DNA from: an uncultured Oscillibacter sp.
GTDB lineage: Bacteria > Bacillota > Clostridia > Oscillospirales > Oscillospiraceae
Length of the DNA stretch: 64,000 nucleotides
Direction of reading: 5' to 3'
NCBI GenBank assembly: GCA_964455915.1
Contig: CAYWAS010000001.1
Coordinates: 43,882-107,881 of the forward strand
A program made the translations under genes and the position numbers. This document shows positions 23,139 to 44,749 of this stretch, one piece after another (within the stretch, counting starts at the first letter, position 1; each line of letters starts with the position of its first letter). The notes beneath the pieces were generated by a model that was given only the letters and a program-made list of their open reading frames with translations, made no database searches and had not been told where the DNA came from.

Positions 23139-25067
23139 TCACATACAGCGGATCGTCACACTGTCCCGATCCTGCACGACCTGAAGAAAGCCCGCTTCGC
23201 TCCCGTTGACCGCGAGATAAACCGGCTGCTCCAGCGTCTCAAAATCCAGACCGGAGTGCTCCAGAAGATCCATCAGATAGTAGGGCTGGCCGTCCTCCTT
23301 CGCTTGCAGGGTCAGCGGCTTTTCGTTGAGCAGAATGTGAACGGAGTGAGCGCTCACACGCGGCTCGGCAGGCGTCTCGATCTGCACGGTCGGCTCTTCG
23401 ATGTGCGCCTCCACCACCTCTTCCGGCTGCTTCGGTTCCGATTCCGGCTCCTGCTCCTGCGCAGGCTCCTCTTCCCGTTCTGCCGTGGGCTGCTTCTCCA
23501 GCGTCAGAATCACATCGCCCTGCTTGAGCGGCGTGTCCATCGGACAGTCGAGATTGTTGAGCAAAACGCGGCCGCAGAAGTCTTCCCCGAGGAACTGCCC
23601 CAGCGTTTTTTTCGCGTCGGTCCCCTTCTGCGCCGGAACGAAGCGGATCCTGTCTCCGGCATGGACCGGCATATTGATCGCAGCCTCTTCCTCGTTGAGC
23701 TGTAGCACCGCCGGTATAGACGGCTCGCCGCGCAGCACGACCAACTGCCCGTCGTAGGTGACGCTCATGCTCTTTCCGGTCCCGCCAAGCATATCGGCGT
23801 AGGTGTAGCCATTCATCAGCAGCACATCGCGAAGGCTCAGCGTCCCGCTTCGGAACAGCTTCGCCGGTGCGCCGTTGAGCATGACGACATAGCTGTCGTT
23901 CAACAGACCGAGACCAGCGGAGACCGCGATCCCCAGCGGGGTCGTATACTCCGGATTGTCCAGCCTGATCTGCTCCGAAAAGGCACTCTTGGCAAAATTA
24001 TTGCCGGCGATGGCCACTCGTCTCTGATCCATGCCGAGGCTCTCCGCGACCTTTTCGCGCAGACCGCTCAGCTTGCTTCCGCCGCCCGCCAGAAATACCG
24101 CAGACGGCGCAGCGCCGTTCACCGAGACGATCTGCTCGGCGATCGCTTCGGCGAGTTTGGACAAGGGCGCGTCGATCGCAGCGCAAATGTCCTCATAGCT
24201 GTAGGTTTGCTCCAGCCCGAGGATATCGATGAAGCTGCTCTCCTCGCCGACCTTCAAGCCGCGCTTGATCTGCTCCGCCGTTTGGAAATCCACAAGGTAC
24301 GCCTGCATGAGCGCCTCTGTGATCTCATCACCGGCGACCGTCGCCATGGTATAGCCGACAACGCTCCCGTCCTTGCAGATCGCGATATCCGTGGTGCCCG
24401 CGCCGATGTCCACGAGTGCCAGATTCAGCATTCGAAGCTCCGACGGGATCGCCGCGTTCATGGCGGCGATCGGCTCGAGCGTCATGCTCGCGACCTGAAG
24501 TCCGGCCGAGCGCATCGCGGCGTAAAGGCTCTCCACGACCTCCCCGGGCAGGAAGGTCGCCACGATATCCACCTCCGCCACAGCTCCGCTATGGTCGAGC
24601 AGCGCCGTGAGCGGGTAACCGTCCAGCCGATACTGCGAGACGGTGTAGCCGACGAGGAAAAACTGCTGTTTTGTCTCCTCCTGCGCCTGCAGCGCCTGCT
24701 CCGCTTCGGAAACCGCGCCGGCCTCCAATCGGCTGATCTGCTCGGCATCGATGCTCTTCCCGCCGGTCAGGGCGAGAGAAAAGCTGCCGCGCTCCGTGCG
24801 CAGCGCGCGACCGGCGGCGGCAACGCAGACGCGCTCCAGCCGCACGCCCAGCCGCTCCTCCAATCGGTGTGTGACCGTCTGCGCCAGTCCGGCCACCTGC
24901 TGGATATTGTCGATCTGACCGTCGATCATGGCTCGCTTGCTGTGCTCGGCAAGCTCCACATCGAGGACCTTGAGACGGTCCCCCTCCGCGACACCTACGA
25001 GCCCCACAACGCAGCGGGTCCCGATATCCAGCGCATAGATCAGATCATTTCCGGCTGCTGCATTCAT
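23139..25067 (-). CDS. FtsA-like actin-fold ATPase with C-terminal beta-grasp (ThiS/MoaD-like) repeats
   Basis: Actin-fold motifs ALDIGT, LEPIAA, LVDIGAGTTDI, VFLAGGGSKL, TTPLGIA; C-terminal repeats such as LAVNGSEAGFLQVVQDRDSVTI and VLLNN...PLKQGDVI. Confidence 0.85.
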   Translation of the reverse strand: MNAAAGNDLIYALDIGTRCVVGLVGVAEGDRLKVLDVELAEHSKRAMIDGQIDNIQQVAGLAQTVTHRLEERLGVRLERVCVAAAGRALRTERGSFSLALTGGKSIDAEQISRLEAGAVSEAEQALQAQEETKQQFFLVGYTVSQYRLDGYPLTALLDHSGAVAEVDIVATFLPGEVVESLYAAMRSAGLQVASMTLEPIAAMNAAIPSELRMLNLALVDIGAGTTDIAICKDGSVVGYTMATVAGDEITEALMQAYLVDFQTAEQIKRGLKVGEESSFIDILGLEQTYSYEDICAAIDAPLSKLAEAIAEQIVSVNGAAPSAVFLAGGGSKLSGLREKVAESLGMDQRRVAIAGNNFAKSAFSEQIRLDNPEYTTPLGIAVSAGLGLLNDSYVVMLNGAPAKLFRSGTLSLRDVLLMNGYTYADMLGGTGKSMSVTYDGQLVVLRGEPSIPAVLQLNEEEAAINMPVHAGDRIRFVPAQKGTDAKKTLGQFLGEDFCGRVLLNNLDCPMDTPLKQGDVILTLEKQPTAEREEEPAQEQEPESEPKQPEEVVEAHIEEPTVQIETPAEPRVSAHSVHILLNEKPLTLQAKEDGQPYYLMDLLEHSGLDFETLEQPVYLAVNGSEAGFLQVVQDRDSVTIRCM

Positions 25068-25088
25068 TCAGCCCACGCTCCTTCTTCG

Positions 25089-25469
25089 TTATCCCTTGCC
25101 GATCGCCTTCATCGCGCCCTGCAAGCCCTCCAGAAGAGATTCCTTCGTAAAGGGCTTGAAGAGAAAGCCCTTCGCGCCCAGCGCAGCGGCCTTATCGATA
25201 ATGTCGCCATACGCCATAGACGAGACCATAAACACCTGCGCGTCCGGCCACTTTTTCCGCAGCGCATCGCAGGTCTCCAGCCCGTCCATACCAGGCATCA
25301 CAATATCCATCGTCACAAGATCGGGCATCACCTGTTCATACTGCTCCAGCGCTTCCTCGCCGGTCCTGCAATAAGCTGCGATCTCAAATTCGCTGCCCTC
25401 CAGCATTTTTTTCATTTCCGAGTGGATCACGCGTGAATCGTCAACCACCATGAGTTTATAGTGTGCCAT
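25089..25469 (-). CDS. Second CheY-like single-domain response regulator
   Basis: VVDDS, TMDIVMP (phospho-Asp), VSS and FKPF conserved; follows cheX. Confidence 0.88.
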   Translation of the reverse strand: MAHYKLMVVDDSRVIHSEMKKMLEGSEFEIAAYCRTGEEALEQYEQVMPDLVTMDIVMPGMDGLETCDALRKKWPDAQVFMVSSMAYGDIIDKAAALGAKGFLFKPFTKESLLEGLQGAMKAIGKG

Positions 25470-25484
25470 TGGTACTCCCCCTTC

Positions 25485-25979
25485 TTATTGTGCTCTTTGC
25501 GAAGTGAGCGTCCAGGAAAAGACCGCCCCTTCGTTGCTGTCGCTTATGAAATCCACCGAATATACTCTGTTTTCATTCTGCATCGCGGCGGCATCGTTAT
25601 GATGCCTGTAGATCGTCGGCAGAAAGCGGGCGGACTGCCCGGTCAGGTTGTAGAGCTCCGAAACGAATCGTCCGCAGACCATGTTGAAAAATTCCGTTGC
25701 GTACTCCTCTACCTCTTCCTGATCGCTCGCCGGTGCCCCGATCATGCCGGCCGCCAGCCGCTCAAAAAGACTCTGCTCGGCCTCGAGCCACATGAGCAGT
25801 GTGAATTCACCCCTCGTCTCGGCGTATACGACACCGAGCGGCTGCGTTGAAAAGCGTATCGGTCCGCCCTGTGCTCTTGAGATCTGTATTCCGCTGATCT
25901 GCTCTAATATCTCGCAGAGAAGCTGCTCAGCCAACTGGCTGACCCACTCCTGCTCGATCGCTTTTTGCAAGCAGATCAC
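25485..25979 (-). CDS. cheX: CheX-family CheY-P phosphatase
   Basis: VEEYATEFFNMVCGRF ExxN motif; size about 164 aa. Confidence 0.8.
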   Translation of the reverse strand: MICLQKAIEQEWVSQLAEQLLCEILEQISGIQISRAQGGPIRFSTQPLGVVYAETRGEFTLLMWLEAEQSLFERLAAGMIGAPASDQEEVEEYATEFFNMVCGRFVSELYNLTGQSARFLPTIYRHHNDAAAMQNENRVYSVDFISDSNEGAVFSWTLTSQRAQ

Positions 25980-25988
25980 CTCCCCTGC

Positions 25989-27716
25989 TTAGTAAATACT
26001 TTTGATTTCCTCTTCCTTGACATCGTAGACCATGCGGCAGCGATGACAGGGCTCCTTCGCCACCCAGGTGCGATTGTGGATCTTCAATGCGGTGACCGGA
26101 TAGACATCATCTGCCTCAAACCGGCACTTGGAAAGATCCGGAAGGATCAGCTTCAGGCTCTCGCGCGCGGCAAGCTGCTTCTTTTCCTTCATTCCCAGCA
26201 TGGACTTGCGCAGCCGCGCCCTTGCGAGCTCCGGCGTACTGCTCTCCTGTCCGCCGATCCGCTCCAGATAGCCAAGATCCTTCTCAAGCCGCTCCATTTC
26301 CGCGTGGATCTCCTCCAGCCGGTCCTCCACGGCCTGCATCTCCGTTTGAACATAGGGCAGCACGCCCAGCGTCAGCTCCGTTCTGCGGCCGGACTGCGCG
26401 CCGACCATCTTCGCGCGTATGGAGTAGGCCGCTGTCAAAGCACCGCCGATCACGCTGCCGCGGCCGCTCGTCACATTGATCCCCTCGTCGCTGAAGATCT
26501 GCGAGGTCATGATGCAGTCCGCATAAACGGTCTTCCCCGCATAAAGCACGCAGTTTTCAAGATATTTCGCGCGGACGCAGCCCTTGCTTCGCAGCAGCGC
26601 CCGATGATCTCCGACAACGCCGCGGCTGATGACAAGGTCTCCGCCTGCCTCCACGGTCGCAGCCTCTACAAGACCGTCGATCGTAACAGTGCCGCTTGCC
26701 CGCACCTCGAAGCCTTCCCGCACATCTTTATAGATGTGGACATCTCCGTTGAACTCGATGTTGCCCGTCGAATAGTCGACATCGCCGCGGATCTCCAGCA
26801 CCGGACGGACATGGAAGGAGCCGTTGGCAAATTCCAGATGCCCTTCGCGCGTTGCGACCAAATGCAGCCCATCGTCGCTGATCGCGGTGTTGCTGCCCTT
26901 CGGCACCTTCGCCGGTCGGACCGGCTTCGGGCGGACGATCTTTCCGTCCACCTGAACACCCGCCGTTCCCTCCTGCGGAAGTACGATGTCGCAGATGCAG
27001 GTGTCCTTCTCGATCTGACGGACATAGTTCATCGAGCGGTAGTCCGCCGTGCCGTCTTCGTTTATCATGACCTCCCGCGTGACCTCGCGGGGGAAGAGCT
27101 CCGTCACCTTGCCGTCGGACCCCTCCACCGGCTCCGTGCCCGCCGCAATGGGGATCAGTTCAAAATACGGGTGCTCCTGCAGCAGACGCACGACCTCGTT
27201 GGAGTCGATGCCGGTCATCACGCCGGCGTCCTGAAGCGCCTTGCCCAGCGCGCCCGCCTCGAACTGTCCCTCGGGACCAAAGGGCGGAAAGAAGAATACC
27301 CACGCCAGCATCTTGTCTCTGGACAGATAGACCTGACAACTGCTGCTCAGCGAGAAATTCTCCTGCTCTTTTCCCTTTTCGATCAGATGGAGACGGCTCT
27401 TCGCGTCCTGCTCCAGCTTGACGATCAGACGAACGCGCTCCTGCTCCAGAAGGTGTGCCGCCCGTTCCGGATCGCGTACATTTTTCGCCGGAGCGATCTC
27501 AAGCAGCGGCGGCACGGACGAGTTTGTCCACAGCTCCCACAGCTTCAGCGAAGCACCTTTGATCTCCGGCAGATAGATCTTATGCTCAATCGGACGATCG
27601 TCCTCGTCCGAGGTATGTTCAAGCTCTGAAGGTTGAGAAGGTACATCTTGTTCGATTTTCTCCGATTCGACCGCATTTTTGCGAAACGGGCTTCCAAAGT
27701 GCCATTTCCTGCTCAT
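25989..27716 (-). CDS. DUF342/FapA family protein
   Basis: LSRDKMLAWV...ALQDAGVMTGID N-terminal motif; GDVDYSTGNIEFNGDVHI...GGDLVISRGVVG beta-helix repeats. Confidence 0.88.
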   Translation of the reverse strand: MSRKWHFGSPFRKNAVESEKIEQDVPSQPSELEHTSDEDDRPIEHKIYLPEIKGASLKLWELWTNSSVPPLLEIAPAKNVRDPERAAHLLEQERVRLIVKLEQDAKSRLHLIEKGKEQENFSLSSSCQVYLSRDKMLAWVFFFPPFGPEGQFEAGALGKALQDAGVMTGIDSNEVVRLLQEHPYFELIPIAAGTEPVEGSDGKVTELFPREVTREVMINEDGTADYRSMNYVRQIEKDTCICDIVLPQEGTAGVQVDGKIVRPKPVRPAKVPKGSNTAISDDGLHLVATREGHLEFANGSFHVRPVLEIRGDVDYSTGNIEFNGDVHIYKDVREGFEVRASGTVTIDGLVEAATVEAGGDLVISRGVVGDHRALLRSKGCVRAKYLENCVLYAGKTVYADCIMTSQIFSDEGINVTSGRGSVIGGALTAAYSIRAKMVGAQSGRRTELTLGVLPYVQTEMQAVEDRLEEIHAEMERLEKDLGYLERIGGQESSTPELARARLRKSMLGMKEKKQLAARESLKLILPDLSKCRFEADDVYPVTALKIHNRTWVAKEPCHRCRMVYDVKEEEIKSIY

Positions 27717-30595: not shown

Positions 30596-31459
30596 ATGAA
30601 AAAAACCTACGAACCAAATCATAAAAAACGGCGACTGCTTGCCACTTTCCTTCTGGCACTGCTCTGCATCGGCAGCGCGGAGCTGATCGCCTGCTCCATT
30701 TTTGCTCCCGAAACCTTTGCGCGCATCACCGCGCCGGTCCGCTCCGCCGCCGATGCCGTGGTCGATACGGGGCGCTCTGTCGCTTCCGACCTCGCGCTCT
30801 GGTACGCCGATTTGACGGCACCCGACGAGGAGCCCGCGCAGGAAGTCGACGAGCCGACGCTCAAAAACACCTCACCGATCCTGGACCCCGTCATCACTGA
30901 GCTCATCAGCGATGGGGATACGGACATTCTGACCGGCGGCACCGTCAATGTCGTCTACTACGCTCAGGGAGACGACGCGTGGGCGGAGCAGCCTTACGGC
31001 AGCGACCGCATCGGTCGCTACGGCTGCGGCCCCGTGGCGCTTGCCATGGCCATCAGCAGCATGACGGACGAAACGATCGATCCGGTCCAGGCCGCGCAGG
31101 AAGCGGTCGCCGCGGGATACTGGGCGAAGGGACATGGCTCGTACCTGTCCATCGTGACCGGCCTTGCGAAAAAGCACGGGCTTCACGCCGAAGCGGTCGA
31201 GAGCAAGACCGTGGATTCGGTGCAGGACGCGCTCCTTTCCGGCAAGCTCCTTGTGGCGCTCATGGGGCCGGGGCATTTTACCAACGGCGGGCATTTTATC
31301 CTCATTCGCGGCATCACGCTTCAGGGAACGCTGCTCGTAGCCGACCCCAACAGCATCGACCGGAGCTTGCAGGAATGGGACCCGCAGTTGATTTTGGACG
31401 AGCTGTCCCACAGCACCGCGCACGGCGCGCCGCTGTGGGCGCTGAGCAGCGAACCTTAA
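30596..31459 (+). CDS. Membrane-anchored C39-like (papain-fold) peptidase
   Basis: N-terminal anchor; YYAQGD..W, GCGPVALAMAIS (Cys), GHFILIRG (His), VADPNS (Asp). Confidence 0.85.
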   Translation: MKKTYEPNHKKRRLLATFLLALLCIGSAELIACSIFAPETFARITAPVRSAADAVVDTGRSVASDLALWYADLTAPDEEPAQEVDEPTLKNTSPILDPVITELISDGDTDILTGGTVNVVYYAQGDDAWAEQPYGSDRIGRYGCGPVALAMAISSMTDETIDPVQAAQEAVAAGYWAKGHGSYLSIVTGLAKKHGLHAEAVESKTVDSVQDALLSGKLLVALMGPGHFTNGGHFILIRGITLQGTLLVADPNSIDRSLQEWDPQLILDELSHSTAHGAPLWALSSEP

Positions 31460-32317: not shown

Positions 32318-35089
32318 TCAGTAGCCTCCGGTCAGGCCGGCAAGCGCAGAACTCTGCGAGTTCATCTCGTTGATGAGCTGTTCGAGCTGCGTGAACTTGC
32401 TTGTATAGTAATCTACCTTGTCAGAGAGCTTGTCCTGCCAGGATTCGATCTGCTTGTCCAGCTCGTCAAGCTGCTTCTGGATCGTATTCTGATACACCGA
32501 TGTCGGCGCGAGAGACGAGCCCGCCTTCTCCACCAGGATACCCTTGGTCGCGCCGGTCGTCGCCGCGTACATATCCAGCGGAGACTTGAGCGCCGTCATC
32601 AGACCGTTGCTCGACGCACCGGTCTCCTTGCTTTTGGTGAAAACATCGCGCACCTTGTCCGGATCAGTCTCCAACGCGGAGCGGAGCTTGCTCTCATTGA
32701 GCGACAGCGTGGTCAGACCGTCGTCGTATGTCGTGCTGATGCCGATGGACGAAAGCTCCAGTCCCACGGACTGCACCGCATTGGTCAGGCGCGTGTAGAG
32801 GTTCGAGAGATCGCGGTCGGCAAACAGCAGACCCGTCTTCGCCTTCTCCTCATACGACTTGATGGCGGATTCGCTCATGCCCTCCTCGTCTGCCGAGGTG
32901 AGCGGCTCATAGTACGCGCCGTTGGACTTCTGAAGAGGCAGCGTGGAGTAAGCGTCCTTGACCTCCTTGACCATGGCGTTGTATTCCTCGACCATGGACT
33001 TGATCGCGTCCACGATGGTGTCCGCGTCGGCCTCGCTCTTGAAAGTGACCGCCTCGGTGCCCTTGAGGAACAGGTCTCCGTTGGCGGCAGGAGTAAACTC
33101 GTTGCCGTTCGCGTCCTGATAGACCGCCTTGCCCGTTGTCGGAACTCCTCCAAAATCGAATCCCATGTCCTTCAATTCCTTCAGGAGCTCTGTATATGTA
33201 ACACCATCTTCATTGACATACTCGCCTGCATCATTCACATACTTGTAATCAAGGTTATAGCGTTTGTTATTAAAGTAAGCCTCGCCCTCTACGACTGGCG
33301 TGTTATTACCCGCCGGCTCACCTACAGCCTTATATACACCGTTCGCCACCTCGACCTTGGTGGCATAGCCGAAAGTGTCCTTGACATTGATGCTCAGTCC
33401 GTCGATATCAAAGGTATTGGAGGAGCGCTCGAGCTCCATCTCCTCACCGTTGACCGAGACCCTGACCATGGCGTCCTTCCCCTGAACATAGCCGCTGCCA
33501 TAGACCTTCTCGCCGGCGTCGTTCGTTGTATAGGTATCACCGAACAGCGCGCCTGCCAGACCGCCGCTGATGTCAACTCTTCCCGCCGTTCCACTGTCTC
33601 TGGCGGTGAATTTGAACTGATTGGTGGTCTTGGAATAGGACAGCGTCACATTGGCATCGGCGTTGCCGTTGATGCCGGTCATCACCGTTTCAAACGCGGT
33701 GTTCTTCGAGAACGCGCCTACGGTCTCGCCGTTGATCTCCAGCTTGTGCAGCCAGTTGCCGTCCTCGTCTACACGGTAATACTTACCGTCCTCGTTCTTC
33801 GCCACGCGGTTGCCGTCGGCATCTTTGTAGTAGGCGGCGGTGTTCTTGGTAGCCGCTACCTCCTTGACCGATCCCTTGGCCTCGATCATAGTGCCTGTGC
33901 CCGTCCAGTCAAAGCCTTTCAGCAGGTCTCCCAGCTTCTGGCTGGTGTTGACATAAGAGGTCTCGCTGTTGCTTTCCAGACCCAGAGCCTTGCCGTTGTC
34001 GACCTTCAGCGTGGAGCCCTTAGCCACCTCAAAGGACAGTCCGCCCTCACCGTTGACCTTGGCCGTCACCTTGCCGGTGCCGAACGCATCGTTCAGCTCC
34101 GCCTGCAACGCCTTCTGTAAGCCGGCAGTATCGGTAAAGGTATGGTCCTTCAGGCTGATCTTCTTGGTCTTACCGTCCAGCGTGAAGGAGACCTCTTCCT
34201 CCTTCAGCTTGTCGGCGTAGGTCTTTGTGTCATCATACAGCGCCTTGTCTTCCACCTTGATTTCCTTCACGCCGTCGCTGACGCTCTTGGACTCGATGCC
34301 GAGTGTGGTTTTCAGATCGCCGCTGGCACTCAGCACGAACGCGCCGTTGCCGCCGCCGCCCACATCTGTGAACTTGATGGTTTTTGCGGCATCGTCCCAC
34401 TCGGCCTTGATCTTCTGATCGGCGGTATAAGCATTGCCGGAGAGGGTGATATTCTGCTCCTTCAGGGCGGCGTTGATCTCATCGGCCAGCTCCTGACCGG
34501 TTTTGATCACTTCCGTGCCGCCGTCCTTGATGCCGTCGATGCTGATGGTGATTTGAGTAGCGCCGCCGTAGCCCAGCGTCAGCGTACCGGCTACCTTGCT
34601 CGCATCATATTTCTTGTCCAGCTCGAGCTTACCGCCTTCAACGCCTGGCTTGTCGCCCGTTCCACCCGTCAGCGCACCGCCGCTGACGGTGTAGCCGGAG
34701 GCGGTCGCGAGCTGCTTCACGCCCAGCAGCTTCACATCGCTGGAGGTCTTGCCGGTGGCAGACGCCTTGTCCTTGTGTGCCCCCAGCGTGCTGACCTTGA
34801 CCGCGTTGTTGAAAAAGCTCGCGGACATCAGATTGGTCGAGGAGGTGTAGGAGGCAAACTTGTTCGAAAAGCCCGCCATCTTCGTGATGATGCTGCGGTA
34901 CGCCTCCTGCTGCCATTCCAGCTTTGTCCGCTTCTGCGTCAAACTGCTGATCTTCGTCTCATAGCCGGAAACAGCGTTCTGGATCAAAGTTTCGGTGTCC
35001 AGACCGCTTGCAAGGCCGGAGATCACATTTCTGGTCCCGTAAATACTGGAGGTGGACGAGCTGTTTGTCAAACTGGAAATCGATGCCAT
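32318..35089 (-). CDS. fliD: Filament cap protein FliD (923 aa)
   Basis: ISGLASGLDTETLI, KLEWQQEAYR, VKQLATA; C-terminus YYTSKFTQLEQLINEMNSQSS. Confidence 0.96.
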   Translation of the reverse strand: MASISSLTNSSSTSSIYGTRNVISGLASGLDTETLIQNAVSGYETKISSLTQKRTKLEWQQEAYRSIITKMAGFSNKFASYTSSTNLMSASFFNNAVKVSTLGAHKDKASATGKTSSDVKLLGVKQLATASGYTVSGGALTGGTGDKPGVEGGKLELDKKYDASKVAGTLTLGYGGATQITISIDGIKDGGTEVIKTGQELADEINAALKEQNITLSGNAYTADQKIKAEWDDAAKTIKFTDVGGGGNGAFVLSASGDLKTTLGIESKSVSDGVKEIKVEDKALYDDTKTYADKLKEEEVSFTLDGKTKKISLKDHTFTDTAGLQKALQAELNDAFGTGKVTAKVNGEGGLSFEVAKGSTLKVDNGKALGLESNSETSYVNTSQKLGDLLKGFDWTGTGTMIEAKGSVKEVAATKNTAAYYKDADGNRVAKNEDGKYYRVDEDGNWLHKLEINGETVGAFSKNTAFETVMTGINGNADANVTLSYSKTTNQFKFTARDSGTAGRVDISGGLAGALFGDTYTTNDAGEKVYGSGYVQGKDAMVRVSVNGEEMELERSSNTFDIDGLSINVKDTFGYATKVEVANGVYKAVGEPAGNNTPVVEGEAYFNNKRYNLDYKYVNDAGEYVNEDGVTYTELLKELKDMGFDFGGVPTTGKAVYQDANGNEFTPAANGDLFLKGTEAVTFKSEADADTIVDAIKSMVEEYNAMVKEVKDAYSTLPLQKSNGAYYEPLTSADEEGMSESAIKSYEEKAKTGLLFADRDLSNLYTRLTNAVQSVGLELSSIGISTTYDDGLTTLSLNESKLRSALETDPDKVRDVFTKSKETGASSNGLMTALKSPLDMYAATTGATKGILVEKAGSSLAPTSVYQNTIQKQLDELDKQIESWQDKLSDKVDYYTSKFTQLEQLINEMNSQSSALAGLTGGY

Positions 35090-35184: not shown

Positions 35185-35213
35185 TTATCGGCATCTGTTA
35201 TAATAAAAATAAG
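35185..35213 (-). promoter_or_regulatory. Putative sigma28 promoter of the fliD operon
   Basis: Consensus -10 GCCGATAA (35192-35185) with CTTATTTTT starting 21 bp upstream. Confidence 0.75.
35196..35204 (+). promoter_or_regulatory. Extended -10 SigA element for parA, overlapping the divergent fliD promoter
   Basis: TG-T-TATAAT, 48 bp before the TTG start. Confidence 0.55.
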
Positions 35214-35251
35214 CTTTTTCTCACAGTTTTTATCGATAGGAGGAAAAAACT

Positions 35252-36034
35252 TTGGCTAAGATCATTACTGTGACCAATCAGAAGGGCGGCGTCGGGAAAA
35301 CGACCATTACAGCAGCCCTTATTGCCGAGCTCCAGCGCAGGGGTGCGCGTGTTCTGGGCGTGGACATCGACCCGCAGGGCAACCTCGGCTTCTCGTTCGG
35401 GCTGAACATCGAGGACGGGCTTTCCGTTTACGATGTCCTGACCGGAAAATGCTCGACCGCCGAAGCGATCGCGCACACGGACTACGGTGACATTCTGCAC
35501 ACGGACATCATGCTCTCGGCCTTTGTCTCGGGAGACAGCGGCTTCCACACGAGCAAGGACACCATGCTCTCGTACCATCTCGATCAGGTCAAAAGCGATT
35601 ACGACTTCATTTTCATCGACACGCCGCCGTCCCTGAATATTCTGACGATCAACGCCTATGTCGCCTCGTCGGAGCTCATCATTCCGATGAACGCCGAGGT
35701 TTTGAGTCTGGTCGGCATTTCGCAGATCCAGGACACCGTTGAGGCGATCCGCAAAAGCTCCAATCCGAATCTGAAGGTCTGCGGCATCGTTATGAACAAA
35801 TACAACGCGCGCCTGATCTCTCACCGTGAGATCCTGGACATGGCGGAGCAGCTCGCCGAGCAGATGGACACGAGGGTCTTCCCTGCCAAGATCCGAAACG
35901 GCATCGATGTCGCGACCGCACCTGCCCACGGGCAGAGCGTTGTGACCTACCGCCCGAAGTCGAATCCGGCGATGGACCTTCGCAAGCTCGTCGACGCGGT
36001 CGCAGGCGACCGATTCTCCCGCACAAGAAAATAA
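35252..36034 (+). CDS. Orphan ParA/Soj-family ATPase
   Basis: Deviant Walker A NQKGGVGKTT, DIDPQGN, IDTPPSL; no parB in the window. Confidence 0.92.
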   Translation: MAKIITVTNQKGGVGKTTITAALIAELQRRGARVLGVDIDPQGNLGFSFGLNIEDGLSVYDVLTGKCSTAEAIAHTDYGDILHTDIMLSAFVSGDSGFHTSKDTMLSYHLDQVKSDYDFIFIDTPPSLNILTINAYVASSELIIPMNAEVLSLVGISQIQDTVEAIRKSSNPNLKVCGIVMNKYNARLISHREILDMAEQLAEQMDTRVFPAKIRNGIDVATAPAHGQSVVTYRPKSNPAMDLRKLVDAVAGDRFSRTRK

Positions 36035-36051
36035 CTCGATTTAAGGACAGT

Positions 36052-36077
36052 AAAGCCCCGGCCATGACCGGGGCTTT
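36052..36077. terminator. Bidirectional terminator between parA and the ComFB-domain gene
   Basis: AAAGCCCCGG-CCATGA-CCGGGGCTTT. Confidence 0.82.
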
Positions 36078-36082
36078 ATTCT

Positions 36083-36898
36083 TTACTGCTCTGCGCCTGC
36101 GTGCCGCGGCGACTCCGCGACCCGATTGCAGGCGTGCAGGATCTGCGCCGTAACAGCAGCGCTGTATCTGCGCTCGTATACCGAGATGCGGGGAATGCGT
36201 TCCCCCTCGCCCATGACAACATATTTCGGCTGCAAATTGTTCAGCGCGATCGCCCTCACATCTGCCTTGCAGCGAGAGCAGCGGCAAATGCCGAACATGG
36301 TCATATACTTCTCGGCGCTCTCCTCCACAAGTGCCTGCATGACATTGCAGATCTTCTCGCGCGGAGCGCTTTCCTCCGCAGGCTCTTCCACCTGCTTTGC
36401 GTCGCTCTCGCCGATAGGCGCAGCGGGTGCAGCAGGCACGGGAGCCGGCTCAGGTTCAGTCTCTGGCTCTGGAACGGATTCAGGCTCGGGAACAAGCTCA
36501 GGTTCAGACTCAGGATTCAGTTCAGAAACGGATTCAGGCTCGGGAACAGGAGCAGGGTCAGCTTCGAAAACAGGCTCCGCCTTGACCGGCACAGCCTCCT
36601 CCGGCTCCTCGACAGCCGGACGCTCCGGCTGCTGCGGGGCGGACAGCTCTTCGCCCGTCACCTCCCGCTCCAACGCGTCCTTGATCTCCTGCGAGACGGC
36701 GGCCTCCTCATTGAGTGAGGCAATGATCGGGTGCTGCACAGGCACAGTCCTCTGCGCCGCAGCGACTGGTCGCTCCGCTTCACCGGCGGCCTCCGTCTGC
36801 TGCTGAACGGCGTTTTCCGTAGCCGTGGTGTTCCCGTTCTTACGCAGCAGATTCATGACATGAGCGGTTTTTGTGGTGTCCTTGTTTTTTGCTGACAT
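36083..36898 (-). CDS. ComFB-domain protein with a long Pro/Glu-rich N-terminal linker
   Basis: C-terminal NVMQALVEE...CRCSRCKADVRAIALNNLQPKYVV...ACNRVAESPRH is the ComFB-family signature as recalled. Confidence 0.8.
   Translation of the reverse strand: MSAKNKDTTKTAHVMNLLRKNGNTTATENAVQQQTEAAGEAERPVAAAQRTVPVQHPIIASLNEEAAVSQEIKDALEREVTGEELSAPQQPERPAVEEPEEAVPVKAEPVFEADPAPVPEPESVSELNPESEPELVPEPESVPEPETEPEPAPVPAAPAAPIGESDAKQVEEPAEESAPREKICNVMQALVEESAEKYMTMFGICRCSRCKADVRAIALNNLQPKYVVMGEGERIPRISVYERRYSAAVTAQILHACNRVAESPRHAGAEQ
36440..36580. repeat. Low-complexity (PE)n coding repeats
   Basis: Repeated TCAGG/CTCAGG units with GGATTCAGGCTCGGGAAC twice; encodes PEPESVSELNPESEPELVPEPESVPEPETEPEP. Confidence 0.75.
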
Positions 36899-36950
36899 AG
36901 ATTGCCTCCTGTTGTCGTTCCGGCGATCCCGCGCTCCGCTCCGGCAGAGA

Positions 36951-38213
36951 TCAATCCATCTTCTGGTTCGGGTAGACCTTCGTCAACTGCTCCCAGAGAA
37001 TGTTGACATTGTCGATGCAAAGGAAATAGATGCTGGTGAGCACATTGCTCGGAATCCCCAGCCCCTCGGCATACTGATTGATCTTATCCCAGTCGGCAGA
37101 CTCGTAGCTCAACACCAGCTCATAGAGCTCACCGCAGCGTCCCTCACGCGTTGTAAGCGCGACCTTTATCTCCTCGGCAATGGGGATCTCATTGAGGATA
37201 TCCTCCAGCGGCGCGTCGATCAGGTGGTGCAGCGTAGAGAACATACCCATCAGATAAGCCTCCGCCTTCGAGATGGGCATATCCTGCGCATAGTTCATCA
37301 GCTCGCTGCAAAAATGCGCGCGCATGAAGGAGATGCGCAGAAACTCCTCCGCGCCCGGGTCGATCCCATGCTCCGCGTTGCTGGCGCTGAGCAGATAGAT
37401 CCACTGCTTGAGCTGACCGAGACCAAGCGTCACAAGCGCCTGATGAATGGTCGTTGCGCGCTGGCGCAGTGCAAAATAGGCGGAGTTCGCCATTTTCAGC
37501 ACGCCGTAGGACAATCCCGCGTCCATCGCGATGATCTGCTCGATCTCCTGCAGGTCGGGCTCGTCCTTCGTCACAGCGACCATCAGACGGAAGAAGGTGC
37601 TTTGCAGATAGCCGCCGCTGTGCGCCGCCGTCGTGAGCTTCTCCGCCACATACGGTCCCTCGAGCCCATTTGCCCCGAGGGAGACGGCCAGATCGTACTG
37701 CTCCTTCGTTTTGATGTTGTTGATGATGCAGGTCTTGTTCATGCTGTGCGCGATCTCGACCGTGTTGCGGATCGCGGCGGGTGCCGTGGTCTCCATATTG
37801 ATCTTGATATAGTCGATGCTGTCCAGCAGCGACAGATAGCGGGGCAGGAACTGGAATTCATTGACCGCGATCTTATAGCCCTCTTTGGCAAACATATTGA
37901 CAAAGTGCATCGACAGCGGATGAATGATGACGCTGTCATCGATCTGAATGACCAGCTCCGATTTGTCGAACAGCCGCGGCGCCTTCTTCATCAAAAGCAT
38001 GGTGGTGAAGGTCATAAAGTTCAAGCCGCCCTTGAGCGCCTTGGAGCTGTTTTGCGTGAGGAAGTTGTAGATAGTATCCGCAGCCGCGAATTCGTGGACC
38101 GGTCCGGCCTCCATACTGAACGCCTGATTCTCGCCATGATACAGGATCTCATGGCCGATAATCGCCCCGTCAACGGTCTTGATCGGCTGTCTTACGATGT
38201 ATTTACCGCCCAT
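36951..38213 (-). CDS. EAL-HDOD protein (YuxH/PdeH architecture) with a degenerate EAL domain
   Basis: YIVRQPI...GHEILYH N-terminus; HDOD LSYGVLKMANSA...IHQALVTLG...EAYLMGMFSTL. Confidence 0.85.
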   Translation of the reverse strand: MGGKYIVRQPIKTVDGAIIGHEILYHGENQAFSMEAGPVHEFAAADTIYNFLTQNSSKALKGGLNFMTFTTMLLMKKAPRLFDKSELVIQIDDSVIIHPLSMHFVNMFAKEGYKIAVNEFQFLPRYLSLLDSIDYIKINMETTAPAAIRNTVEIAHSMNKTCIINNIKTKEQYDLAVSLGANGLEGPYVAEKLTTAAHSGGYLQSTFFRLMVAVTKDEPDLQEIEQIIAMDAGLSYGVLKMANSAYFALRQRATTIHQALVTLGLGQLKQWIYLLSASNAEHGIDPGAEEFLRISFMRAHFCSELMNYAQDMPISKAEAYLMGMFSTLHHLIDAPLEDILNEIPIAEEIKVALTTREGRCGELYELVLSYESADWDKINQYAEGLGIPSNVLTSIYFLCIDNVNILWEQLTKVYPNQKMD

Positions 38214-41808: not shown

Positions 41809-42657
41809 TCACCGGTTCATCGGTTCCGCGCGGGAACCGCTCAGATACGGCTCCATATATCTGTGCAGCTTTTCAATGGCTTTTGCATGGATCTGTGAGA
41901 TCCGCGGGGGCGTCAGGTCCATGACCTGCGCGATCTCGTTGAGCTGCAAGTCCCGCTCATAATGCAGGGACAAAACGAGCTGCTCGTTTTTCCGCAGGGA
42001 CGCGATGCCCTCCTCCAATACACTCTGCAGCTCACGCCGCTGCAATATCGCCTCCGGATAGCTGTCCGGATCTGCGGGCAGAATGTCGTACAAAAAGACC
42101 TTCCCGTCTGTCTCCATGCGGGATAAGTGTATCCCCTCGTCCAGCGGCAGGACCTTTTTCAGTGCCGCGTCCTTCAGCCCCTTCCGGTAGCGCTCCTCCG
42201 AAATGTTCATGAAGTCCACCATTTCCGCCGTGGTGGGCGTGCGCCCGATCTCACCGGTGAGCGTCTCCCGCGCAGTATCGATCTCCTTCATGCGCCGCCG
42301 CGCCGAGCGCGAGACCCAGTCCTGCTTTCTCACCAGATCGATGATCATTCCGCGCAGGCGCTTCGATGCAAAGGTCTCGAACTTTACACCCTTGTCCGGA
42401 TCGAACTTGTCGATCACCGCAAGGAGCGTCAGGATCCCCTCGCTGATCACATCTTCGATCTGCGCGAAATCGCTGTAAAACGCTCTTGTTTGCAGCGCGA
42501 TCGACTTGATCAGATGCTCATAGCGCAGGACGAGCGGCCAGCGCAGCGCCTCGTTTCCCGTTTCCTTGTATGCACGCATGAGCGTGTCCGTGTCCATTCC
42601 CTCGATCTCTGCTTCTGTGTAGCCGGTGTTGGTGTCAAGCGCTATCTGCTCACCCAT
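41809..42657 (-). CDS. fliA: RNA polymerase sigma28 factor FliA/SigD
   Basis: KFDPDKGVKFETFASKRLRGMIID..RKQDW; region 4 EQLVLSLHY...EIAQVM...RISQIH. Start placed at ATG 42657. Confidence 0.93.
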   Translation of the reverse strand: MGEQIALDTNTGYTEAEIEGMDTDTLMRAYKETGNEALRWPLVLRYEHLIKSIALQTRAFYSDFAQIEDVISEGILTLLAVIDKFDPDKGVKFETFASKRLRGMIIDLVRKQDWVSRSARRRMKEIDTARETLTGEIGRTPTTAEMVDFMNISEERYRKGLKDAALKKVLPLDEGIHLSRMETDGKVFLYDILPADPDSYPEAILQRRELQSVLEEGIASLRKNEQLVLSLHYERDLQLNEIAQVMDLTPPRISQIHAKAIEKLHRYMEPYLSGSRAEPMNR

Positions 42658-44749
42658 TTGACACCGCCTTTCGTTCATGGTGCGAGGCGCTCTCCAAGGA
42701 GATCGTGCCAAGCGCCTGTATCTGAACATTATTTGTGATCTCCGCAAAGGATAGGACATAGACATTCGGGAAGAACTGCGAGAGCATACGGCTGAAATAG
42801 CCGCGGATCACCTGACTGACCAGCACGACCGGCGTTTGCGAAAGGCGGCTGAAGCTCTGGAGCAGCTCCGTCATCTGCGTGATGATCTGCTGCATCAGCT
42901 CCGGCCCGATCGCCAGATATATGCCCTGTTCGTTCTTCGTCAGCGAGGCGATGATCCTCTTTTCCACCTCGGAATCCAGCGTGACGACGCGGAGCTGTCC
43001 ACTCTCGCAGAACCGTCTTGTGATCGTGCGGGCCAGCGCGATACGCACCTGCTCGACGGCTGTATCCACATCGCGCTTCTGGTTCAGCGCGTCCATCAGC
43101 GTTTCGAGAATGATGCCGAGGTCCTTGATGGGCACGCCTTCCTTCAGCAGCGCCCGCAGCACCTTTTCCAGCGTGGCATAGCTCACGATGTTCGGGATCG
43201 CCTCCGCGACCAGCTCCGGCTCTGTCTTTTTCAGGTTTTCGACAAGCTGCATCGTCTCCGCGCGGGTCAGCAGCTCGTAGGCGTGTTTTTTGACTGTTTC
43301 GGACAAATGCGTCAGCATGACCGAGAGCGGGTCGATGACATTGTATCCGTAGATCTCCGCCATTTCCTTGTTCTCCGGCAGAATCCAGCGCGAGGGAATG
43401 CCGTAGGCAGGCTCGATCGTCTCGATCCCGTCGATCTCCCCGAGGGGGTCCGCCGGTTCGAGGGCAAGGTAATAATCCACCAGGATCTCGCCCCGCGCCA
43501 CTTCCTCGCCGCGAATGCGGATCACATACTGATTCGTCGCAAGGAAGGCGGCGTCGTGCAGGCGGATCGATGGGAACACGAAGCCCATATCCTGCGCGTA
43601 CTGCCGACGGAAGATCACGATACGGCTGATCAGCTTGCCGCCGTTGCTCTCATCGACCAGCGGGATCAGGCTGTAGCCGAATTCCATCTCGATCGGCTCG
43701 ACCGTCAGCAGAGAATATACATTGTTGATGTCCTTGTAGTAATCGGTCTCGCTCGGAGTCGGTGCCGCCGCATGGTCGACCGCCTCCTCCTCCCGCGCTG
43801 CCACCCTCTGCCGCTCCATTTGCCGGCTGACGGTATAGCCGCCGCCGAGAAGCAGCACGCTGCTGATCAGCAGCGCAAGATGGGGCGTCCCCGGGATTGC
43901 CGAGAGGAACAGCAATATCACGCCTGTCGCCATGATCGCGCGGGGCTGCGCCTTGAACTGCGCGATCACATCCATATTCAGGCTGCCCTCGGAGACCGAG
44001 CGCGTCACGATCATGCCCGTGGCCGTGGAGATCATCAGCGCCGGAAGCTGCGAGACCAAGCCGTCGCCGATCGTCAGAATGGAATACTTCTGCAGCACGC
44101 TCGAAAAGTCGCCGCCGTTGAAGACCATGCCTATGATCACACCGCCGACAAAGTTGATCAGCGTGATGATGATGGACATGACGGCGTCGCCCTTGACGAT
44201 CTTCGTTGCACCGTCCATTGCGCCGTAGAAGTCGGCTTCCTTCTGGATCTTGTGGCGGCGTGCGCGTGCCTCCTCCTCGTTGATGAGACCGGAGCTCAGG
44301 TCGGCGTCGATCGCCATCTGCTTTCCGGGCATCGCGTCCAGCGTGAAGCGGGCCGCGACCTCAGCCACACGCTCGGCGCCCTTGGTGATCACGATAAACT
44401 GCACGAGCACAATGATCAGGAAGATCACAACACCGATCACGATGTTGCCGCCGGTGATCATATTGCCGAAGTTTTGAATGACTGAGCCGGCGTCTCCGTC
44501 CCGCAGGATCAGACGCGTGCTGGACACATTCAATCCCAGTCGGAACAGCGTCGTGACCAGCAAAAGGGACGGAAAGATCGAAAACTCAAGTGTTTCGGAA
44601 ATATTCATGGTGATCATGAGCACCATGATGGATAAGCCAATATTGATGATCAGCAGAATGTCGAGCAAAAAGGGCGGCAGCGGAATGATCAGGAACAGGA
44701 CCACGACGACGACGCACAGAGATATTACATTATCAAAGATCCGCTTCAT
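42650..44749 (-). CDS. flhA: Flagellar export gate FlhA
   Basis: RVAEVAARFTLDAMPGKQMAIDADL, FYGAMDGATKIVKGDA. Confidence 0.98.
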   Translation of the reverse strand: MKRIFDNVISLCVVVVVLFLIIPLPPFLLDILLIINIGLSIMVLMITMNISETLEFSIFPSLLLVTTLFRLGLNVSSTRLILRDGDAGSVIQNFGNMITGGNIVIGVVIFLIIVLVQFIVITKGAERVAEVAARFTLDAMPGKQMAIDADLSSGLINEEEARARRHKIQKEADFYGAMDGATKIVKGDAVMSIIITLINFVGGVIIGMVFNGGDFSSVLQKYSILTIGDGLVSQLPALMISTATGMIVTRSVSEGSLNMDVIAQFKAQPRAIMATGVILLFLSAIPGTPHLALLISSVLLLGGGYTVSRQMERQRVAAREEEAVDHAAAPTPSETDYYKDINNVYSLLTVEPIEMEFGYSLIPLVDESNGGKLISRIVIFRRQYAQDMGFVFPSIRLHDAAFLATNQYVIRIRGEEVARGEILVDYYLALEPADPLGEIDGIETIEPAYGIPSRWILPENKEMAEIYGYNVIDPLSVMLTHLSETVKKHAYELLTRAETMQLVENLKKTEPELVAEAIPNIVSYATLEKVLRALLKEGVPIKDLGIILETLMDALNQKRDVDTAVEQVRIALARTITRRFCESGQLRVVTLDSEVEKRIIASLTKNEQGIYLAIGPELMQQIITQMTELLQSFSRLSQTPVVLVSQVIRGYFSRMLSQFFPNVYVLSFAEITNNVQIQALGTISLESASHHERKAVSNG

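Follow-up and report, generated by a model that had tools for sequence, protein, structure and literature searches.

A Soj-like ParA ATPase and a long-form ComFB protein form a conserved two-gene module of the flagellar gene set in FlhF-less Oscillospiraceae-type Clostridia

The window analyzed here is a 64,000-nt stretch of contig CAYWAS010000001.1, from an uncultured Oscillibacter sp., and the locus under study is situated in the flagellar and chemotaxis region of this 1.9-Mb, 96 %-complete genome. The subject of this work is a pair of adjacent genes, one (parA) coding for a ParA ATPase and the other for a long-form protein with a C-terminal ComFB domain, designated ComFBL. The minus strand contains, in this order, flhB, flhA, fliA, two flgG-type rod genes, cheC, cheD, cheV, a degenerate EAL-HDOD gene and the ComFBL gene, and parA is on the plus strand, divergent from fliD-fliS (Table 1). 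Comparison with other genomes showed that parA and the ComFBL gene constitute a conserved two-gene module of the flagellar gene set in FlhF-less Oscillospiraceae-type Clostridia; the most constant neighbor of the module is fliD, in several different arrangements.

A scan of one genome per prokaryotic species with the N-terminal peptide pattern of ComFBL, [STN]KT[AE][HR]V[ML][NS]LL, identified 323 species genomes with a relative, all of them with Oscillospiraceae-type titles, including Oscillibacter, Flavonifractor, Pseudoflavonifractor, Lawsonibacter, Flintibacter, Acutalibacter and Pygmaiobacter. In the 80 loci listed among these relatives, without exception, a ParA orthologue (50–68 % identical) is situated immediately upstream of the long-form ComFB gene, on the same strand and with gaps of ca. 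40–90 bp. Nine relatives from the same genus have the pair adjacent and co-directional, with parA first, between fliD and either fliW or the EAL-HDOD gene, and distant members that are ca. 30–36 % identical (P0113, P0114, P0109 and P0086) have the same pair in other surroundings. One distant locus is a single co-directional string, flhA-fliA-flgG-flgG-cheC-cheD-cheV-EAL/HDOD-parA-comFBL-fliD-fliS, and at least four different surrounding gene orders exist among the loci bearing the pair. ParA orthologues (48–83 % identical) were found beside every long-form ComFB gene; the co-occurrence of this ParA clade with linker-ComFB genes in flagellar loci, which an earlier note on this DNA (the original prediction) had proposed as a check, was therefore seen in every locus examined.

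The two genes also occur together across genomes. Among 37 genomes of the same genus, the ParA orthologue and ComFBL were present in the same 11. FlhA was found in ten of these, the eleventh being an assembly of 68 % completeness, whereas the remaining 26 genomes yielded neither the ParA orthologue, nor ComFBL, nor FlhA. An evenly drawn, class-wide sample of 300 Clostridia genomes contained two further carriers, G343 and G270, which come from two further families, one of which belongs to a different order, and in which the pair adjoins fliD. Stand-alone clostridial ComFB genes have type IV pilus genes and aroK as neighbors instead of flagellar genes, and within 1.5 kb of the 30 examined, no gene for ParA, Soj or MinD was found. 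In the same sample of 300, a ComFB domain occurs in 86 of the 110 FlhA-positive genomes and in one of the 190 FlhA-negative genomes, a count made with no phylogenetic correction. Additionally, we observed a second type of ParA-ComFB pair (L152, G041:C5, 6956–8324, minus strand), in which a gene for a 254-aa ParA overlaps by 20 nt that of a ComFB protein of 207 aa whose N-terminus is also basic but different (MSAKKNKLSADF...), and whose neighbors are queH and an oxidoreductase gene, not flagellar genes. Since this second, unrelated pair lies outside flagellar loci, the pairing of ParA with ComFB may be more general.

In the window, the ComFBL gene alone is inverted relative to ca. 95 related loci. 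The tail-to-tail layout described in the original prediction is thus correct for this DNA, but not as the normal state of the module, since nearly all relatives are co-directional with parA first. Thirteen independent assemblies encoding the identical protein show the same layout, as do relatives that are 85, 53 and 50 % identical, and no flanking inverted repeats were found around positions 36035–36950. It is, therefore, an old, fixed, lineage-specific inversion. The lack of flanking repeats and the fixed state in the 13 assemblies and the relatives led us to reject a phase-variable invertible switch and, equally, an assembly artefact. The inversion put the ComFBL gene at the end of the cheV-EAL/HDOD transcription unit, still next to parA. 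The hairpin separating both genes is likely a bidirectional terminator and was not called by a consensus terminator scan.

The original prediction also stated that FlhF and FlhG were missing, and this was borne out. FlhF was not found in any same-genus carrier, in G270 and G343, or in this 96 %-complete genome, which likewise yielded no FlhG-like ATPase. The flhF-flhG pair separates flhA and fliA in other Firmicutes. Here, flhA is followed directly by fliA (41809–44749, minus strand), with the listed open reading frames (ORFs) overlapping and no trace of flhF-flhG, and the order is the same in L116. Among the 110 genomes with FlhA in the class-wide sample, 98 were FlhF-positive and 12 were FlhF-less; the module was present in three of the latter and in none of the former (Fisher p = 0.001, phylogeny not corrected for).

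The window ParA matched the Pfam families AAA_31 (157 bits) and CbiA (92 bits), and its deviant Walker A motif, NQKGGVGKTT, is intact and includes the signature lysine. This motif, as well as DxDPQG and IIDTPP, is at least 90 % conserved in 77 ParA orthologues. With the P-loop signature lysine and the Walker A′ and B aspartates present, its motifs place it among the ParA/MinD deviant-Walker-A ATPases. Among solved structures, the window ParA comes closest to an orphan ParA-like protein from M. smegmatis (4PFS, E 4e-36) and to Soj from Thermus and Helicobacter (1WCV/6IUB), with Soj structures matching at E values of 1e-30 to 1e-36; remoter matches are MinD (1e-17), McdA (1e-10) and FleN (4e-4). 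The genome has its own Soj and ParB pair, near gidB, and a MinD, on contig C38, and the window ParA is 36.6 % identical to this Soj. Because the Soj-ParB pair and MinD lie on another contig, the window ParA is a third ParA/MinD paralogue, without a ParB, and the claim of a ParA without parB holds at the locus. It does not belong to the ParABS systems, as there is no ParB at the locus and its score with the NCBIfam model ParA_partition (106 bits) is below the cut-off of 180. Chromosomal Soj-Spo0J systems nevertheless include its closest characterized relatives, with the same catalytic and DNA-contact positions. The retention of Soj-type basic residues, also proposed originally, was confirmed by alignment to the Soj of this genome: both KYNAR and KIRN have their arginine opposite an arginine of Soj, and K182, R186 and K213 are at least 90 % conserved in the 77 orthologues.

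FlhG and FleN are, like the window ParA, ParA/MinD-superfamily ATPases encoded among flagellar genes. FlhG has a flagellar partner, FliM/FliY, whose short helical motif at the N-terminus (EIDAL) binds and stimulates it (bioRxiv 10.1101/2022.04.21.489128), and FleN works with a c-di-GMP (cyclic di-GMP) receptor (PMC12826062). In contrast, the window ParA is Soj-like, is encoded beside fliD and not after flhA, has no FlhF partner, and starts directly at the first strand (MAKIITVTNQKGG), with no N-terminal activator helix. The 77 orthologues end in a short Pro-rich basic tail, and no clear amphipathic membrane-targeting helix was apparent at the C-terminus. These features, together with the remote sequence, set it apart from the FlhG/FleN group; likewise, the possibility that it is a displaced FlhG was ruled out on sequence (E 4e-4 with FleN versus 1e-32 with Soj).

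The partner, ComFBL, matched Pfam ComFB over residues 185–264, well above the cut-off of 25 bits (Table 1). An AlphaFold2 model built on 114 word-indexed homologues consists of a helix (residues 9–20), a disordered stretch (21–56), a second helix (57–82; predicted local distance difference test, pLDDT, 79–89), a second disordered stretch (83–180) and the ComFB domain (181–262, pLDDT >92). In a Foldseek search, this model was similar to BsComFB, the ComFB protein of B. subtilis (4WAI, template modeling score 0.76, root-mean-square deviation 2.0 Å, probability 1.00), and also to the CdgR-c-di-GMP complex of Synechocystis (8HJA). The C-terminal domain of ComFBL thus belongs to ComFB (PF10719) by fold and family score. 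The architecture of basic N-peptide, acidic Pro/Glu linker and ComFB domain was anticipated correctly in the original prediction, which missed the additional conserved helix 57–82. In this helix, I72, A75, L76, E77 and L80 are at least 90 % conserved. The linker is 98 aa long in the window and between 37 and 220 aa in relatives, and its family-wide composition is 25 % Pro, 19 % Glu and 19 % Ala.

ComFB proteins are reported to be c-di-GMP receptors, and that of B. subtilis to depress flagellar motility (PMC12448109); in its c-di-GMP-loaded form, the latter is reported to lower swimming speed and tumbling, with suppressors in CheY, FliM and FliY (PMC12448109; bioRxiv 10.1101/2025.07.11.664319). 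In the ComFBL family, C205, C207, C210, C257, D213, A216, Y226 and N185 are invariant in the 114 sequences. Three of the four invariant cysteines align with the zinc ligands of BsComFB, the fourth being C257. The equivalents of the BsComFB dimerization and c-di-GMP residues N4, D33, A36 and Y46 are among the invariant positions, and that of N40 is kept in 85 of 114; the residue set compared further includes V47 (BsComFB numbering), and the equivalent of Y55 is uncertain. BsComFB and CdgR/SyComFB, which are cyclic-dinucleotide receptors controlling motility, therefore have the same fold as ComFBL, and BsComFB additionally shares with it the zinc-ligand cysteines, the residues equivalent to D33/A36/N40/Y46 and a link to flagellar genes. 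Unlike them, ComFBL has ca. 180 extra N-terminal residues, comprising the two conserved helices and the disordered acidic tether, as well as an obligate ParA neighbor, and has mostly lost K/R41. None of the many architectures given for ComFB proteins in a survey of the family (PMC12448109, main text) corresponds to it. The only two GGDEF genes of the genome are side by side (contig 1, 35399–35842 and 37566–37982), 6–8 kb before the start of the window.

The N-terminal peptide is nearly invariant while the linkers vary freely. Although the 114 homologues share only 31–59 % overall identity (not counting two near-identical relatives), 111 of them have K10, T11 and V14, all 114 have L17, and 90–110 have A12, H13, M15, N16 and L18, with position 13 being H or R; the conservation of this peptide, on which the original prediction depended, was thus substantiated. 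A relaxed form of the pattern occurs exactly once in the genome. A profile of ComFBL residues 1–85, searched against 1.84 billion representatives, retrieved 270 clusters in which the match always started at residue 1, and the peptide was seen on ComFB proteins only: ComFB motifs are present in 86 of the 91 profile matches with 200 or more residues, and the remaining five look frameshifted or truncated. With a conserved positive N-terminal peptide and a gene beside that of the ATPase, ComFBL has, at the sequence level, the hallmarks of the activating partners of ParA/MinD proteins. The peptide was also considered as a flagellar type III export signal, a reading that was set aside because such signals are not conserved in sequence and the 9-mer is nearly invariant.

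Some tethers contain further short motifs. In the protein of G270, the peptide (NKTARVLNLI) and the ComFB domain are kept, but the linker is unrelated and contains MSDDAIAALFAQ as four or five tandem units; moreover, of 250 members of the family, 19 have SQ[DE][DE]IE[KR]ML units, one to three per protein. Tether motifs of these types, with one to five tandem copies of SDDAIAALF or SQ[DE][DE]IE[KR]ML, are found in L150 (4128–5372, minus strand), P0076, P0086, P0334, P0337 and P0347, the multiple copies being ca. 32–42 residues apart. The units resemble the N-terminus of FliM, which reads LSQSEIDALL in this genome. The FliM N-terminal motif binds phosphorylated CheY (CheY-P; PMC6946799) and has been reported as necessary and sufficient for FlhG binding, with FliM stimulating the FlhG ATPase (bioRxiv 10.1101/2022.04.21.489128). 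The tandem motifs are, then, possible docking sites for CheY-P or for an ATPase. The second helix of ComFBL (AAVSQEIKDALE) shares SQ...DAL with the FliM N-terminus of this genome, which is a weak resemblance.

Table 1. Features of the parA-ComFBL locus (positions in the window)
Feature	Position	Strand	Basis
Orphan Soj-like ParA ATPase, 260 aa, TTG start	35252..36034	+	ORF; Pfam AAA_31 157 bits
parA ribosome-binding site AGGAGG, 8 nt before the TTG start	35238..35243	+	Read from sequence
Long-form ComFB-domain protein (ComFBL), 271 aa, ATG start, AGGAGG upstream	36083..36898	-	ORF; PF10719 61.3 bits
Perfect G+C-rich hairpin between the convergent parA and ComFBL genes	36051..36078		Inverted repeat 14+14 nt, 93 % complementary
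ComFBL N-terminal basic peptide, aa 1–20, core K10-T-A-H-V-M-N-L-L18, net charge +4	36839..36898	-	Conservation and predicted helix
ComFBL second conserved helix, aa 57–82, PIIxSLxxDAAVSxQIKDALExxL	36653..36730	-	Conservation and AlphaFold2
ComFBL disordered acidic Pro/Glu/Ala linker, aa 83–180	36359..36652	-	pLDDT 53–63; net charge -24
ComFB domain with invariant four-Cys set	36107..36358	-	pLDDT 92–98; Foldseek 4WAI, 8HJA
Degenerate EAL + HDOD protein, 420 aa, directly upstream of ComFBL on the same strand	36951..38213	-	HDOD 73.7 bits; EAL 34 bits, partial
fliD, divergent from parA	32318..35089	-	FliD_N and FliD_C domains

The EAL-HDOD gene, situated between cheV and the module, adjoins the module in the majority of related loci. 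Its product matched no solved EAL structure at E < 0.01, and the EAL domain is strongly diverged and probably inactive; given its conserved position in these loci, the protein could be a second c-di-GMP sensor at the locus. The sigma-28 promoter pattern TAAA-N13-17-CCGATA had no matches in the window, and a lone sigma-28-type -10 element, GCCGATAA, is found in the fliD-parA intergenic region (35186–35192, minus strand), ca. 97 nt upstream of fliD. Rfam models had no match within the window. Elsewhere in the window, a four-gene cluster (23139–27716, minus strand) contains a FapA/DUF342 gene, cheX, a gene for a single-domain CheY-type receiver and an FtsA/PilM-like gene; the FapA/DUF342 protein (575 aa) has a weak MinC-like match in its beta-solenoid, and the FtsA/PilM-like protein (642 aa) has an actin fold. 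A Peptidase_C39-like gene (30596–31459, plus strand) adjoins the pair formed by fliS and a gene for a 129-aa protein, and recurs as a neighbor in the distant loci L117 and L156.

By a published rule, the partners of ParA/MinD ATPases are modular, as with ParB/Spo0J, MinE, PomX, McdB, TlpT and ParP. ComFBL is built like them, with a short conserved positive N-peptide, a low-complexity unstructured region and a C-terminal domain in the position that binds the cargo, and with its gene beside that of the ATPase. It differs in that its cargo-side domain is of a cyclic-dinucleotide receptor type, which we did not find reported for such partners. These comparisons allow us to propose that the pair is an ATPase with an activator-adaptor that links the sensing of cyclic dinucleotides to the number or placement of flagella or to the function of their switch, a reading to which we give about an even chance; from gene linkage, motif conservation and fold, we infer everything that goes beyond them. 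ParA would be an ATPase that dimerizes with ATP, held on the nucleoid through its conserved basic residues in Soj positions, and ComFBL its dedicated cognate partner. The N-terminal peptide of ComFBL would dock on the ParA-ATP dimer and stimulate the ATPase, as do the N-terminal basic extensions of ParB, MinE, PomX, McdB and TlpT. The ComFB dimer would bind c-di-GMP, or cyclic di-AMP, and contact a flagellar target, probably the switch or C-ring, as the genetics of B. subtilis ComFB suggest, with the long acidic tether bridging the nucleoid-bound ATPase and the membrane-embedded basal body. The net effect would be a cyclic-dinucleotide-dependent control of the number and location of the flagella that are built or active. 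The original prediction, a second-messenger-controlled pair spacing flagella or chemoreceptor arrays in the place of FlhF/FlhG, is thus partly supported. We regard as doubtful, although worth stating, a more specific version in which a nucleoid ParA system determines the number or the spacing of peritrichous flagella in a large set of Clostridia of the gut. A cyclic dinucleotide would gate this system via a ComFB adaptor bearing FliM-N-like motifs and a long entropic tether, and the system would take over the function of the otherwise near-universal FlhF/FlhG.

Several observations weigh against this proposal. The contact of the peptide with ParA is put forward from sequence and by analogy, and the basic residues of KTAHVMNLL are in a register unlike that of the ParB motif LGRGLxALL. 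In some relatives, parA and comFBL are in the same frame with one stop codon between them; in an AlphaFold2 model of the corresponding artificial read-through chain (L049, 543 aa), the peptide was undocked, with pLDDT 35–47 compared to 73 when modeled solo, a result that we do not count as evidence, being weak and uninformative (monomer only, a 28-sequence alignment and pLDDT alone). K/R41 of the c-di-GMP site is kept in 11 of the 114 sequences and is otherwise replaced. Two flagellated relatives, G045 and G059, have neither FlhF nor the module, which therefore is not the only answer to the loss of FlhF. In the lineage of the window, parA and the ComFBL gene are no longer co-transcribed. Finally, most carriers are related, and gene order within a single bacterial family is in part inherited; the counts therefore overstate the number of independent events.

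The two proteins could share a regulon without contacting each other, with ComFBL acting alone as a c-di-GMP-dependent brake or bias factor of the flagellar switch, its N-peptide and helices binding CheY-P, FliM/FliY or FliG, and ParA having a separate job, FlhG-like or unrelated. B. subtilis ComFB needs no ParA, the FliM-N-like motifs of some tethers point to CheY-P or the switch, the two genes are on opposite strands in this lineage, and the peptide was left undocked on ParA in the weak monomer surrogate described above. However, the peptide-bearing long form is found only beside this ParA clade, and this clade only beside the long form; their adjacency outlasts several rearrangements and an inversion, and ParA and ComFB are paired a second time, by unrelated and overlapping genes, away from flagellar loci. 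We consider such independent action unlikely. A transcriptional anti-activator comparable to FleN-FleQ, in which DNA-bound ParA and c-di-GMP-loaded ComFBL would tune late flagellar genes such as fliD and flagellin instead of acting in positioning, agrees with the location of the module at the fliD promoter region and with the Soj-type basic residues retained in ParA; furthermore, FleN/FlhG acts on gene expression with the c-di-GMP receptor FleQ (PMC12826062), and in cyanobacteria a receptor of the ComFB type reportedly works via transcription factors (bioRxiv 10.64898/2026.03.27.713163). Neither ParA nor ComFBL, however, has a domain that reads DNA sequence, an acidic tether of 100–200 aa is hard to explain in a promoter complex, and FleN is merely a remote relative of the window ParA, which make such a role quite improbable.

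A role of the pair in positioning chemoreceptor arrays, like that of ParC/ParP or PpfA/TlpT, was part of the original prediction and would be in line with the presence of cheV, cheC, cheD and genes for methyl-accepting chemotaxis proteins (MCPs) near the module in many loci, and with the orphan ParAs that position arrays in other systems with N-peptide partners. Nevertheless, the modules of same-genus relatives and of L118, L150 and L156 have no che neighbor but always have late flagellar genes of the fliD/fliW type, and ComFBL contains neither a CheW nor an MCP domain. Since the constant neighbor is fliD, and not the che genes, this is the weaker version of the original prediction and we consider it very improbable.

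A full-text literature search found no description of the pair formed by ParA and a long-form ComFB protein (the search returned one general ParA review, whose contents were not considered). Databases name the ATPase only as "ParA family protein" or "chromosome partitioning protein", and the partner is unnamed or a "hypothetical protein". A ParA/MinD ATPase with an N-peptide partner is of a known kind; the second-messenger-receptor type of the partner and its occurrence in flagellar loci without FlhF/FlhG are new and apparently undescribed. How flagellar number and placement are controlled in bacteria without FlhF/FlhG is an open question (PMC12826062), and the direct target of the ComFB receptor family is still unknown, B. 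subtilis included (bioRxiv 10.1101/2025.07.11.664319). If our proposal is true, the module would represent a new class of cargo or adaptor for ParA/MinD positioning systems, would provide a concrete candidate binding partner for the ComFB receptor family and would tie c-di-GMP signaling to a ParA ATPase. Control of flagellar number or placement is exerted elsewhere by FlhF/FlhG, FleN-FleQ or YcgR/MotI. FlhF is present in most of the flagellated Clostridia that were sampled, and the Oscillospiraceae-type lineages that lost it carry the module instead, making it a good candidate for a new mode of flagellar control. The carriers belong to the abundant commensals of the gut, and their flagellins are relevant to host immunity; the control of their flagellation is therefore of practical interest.

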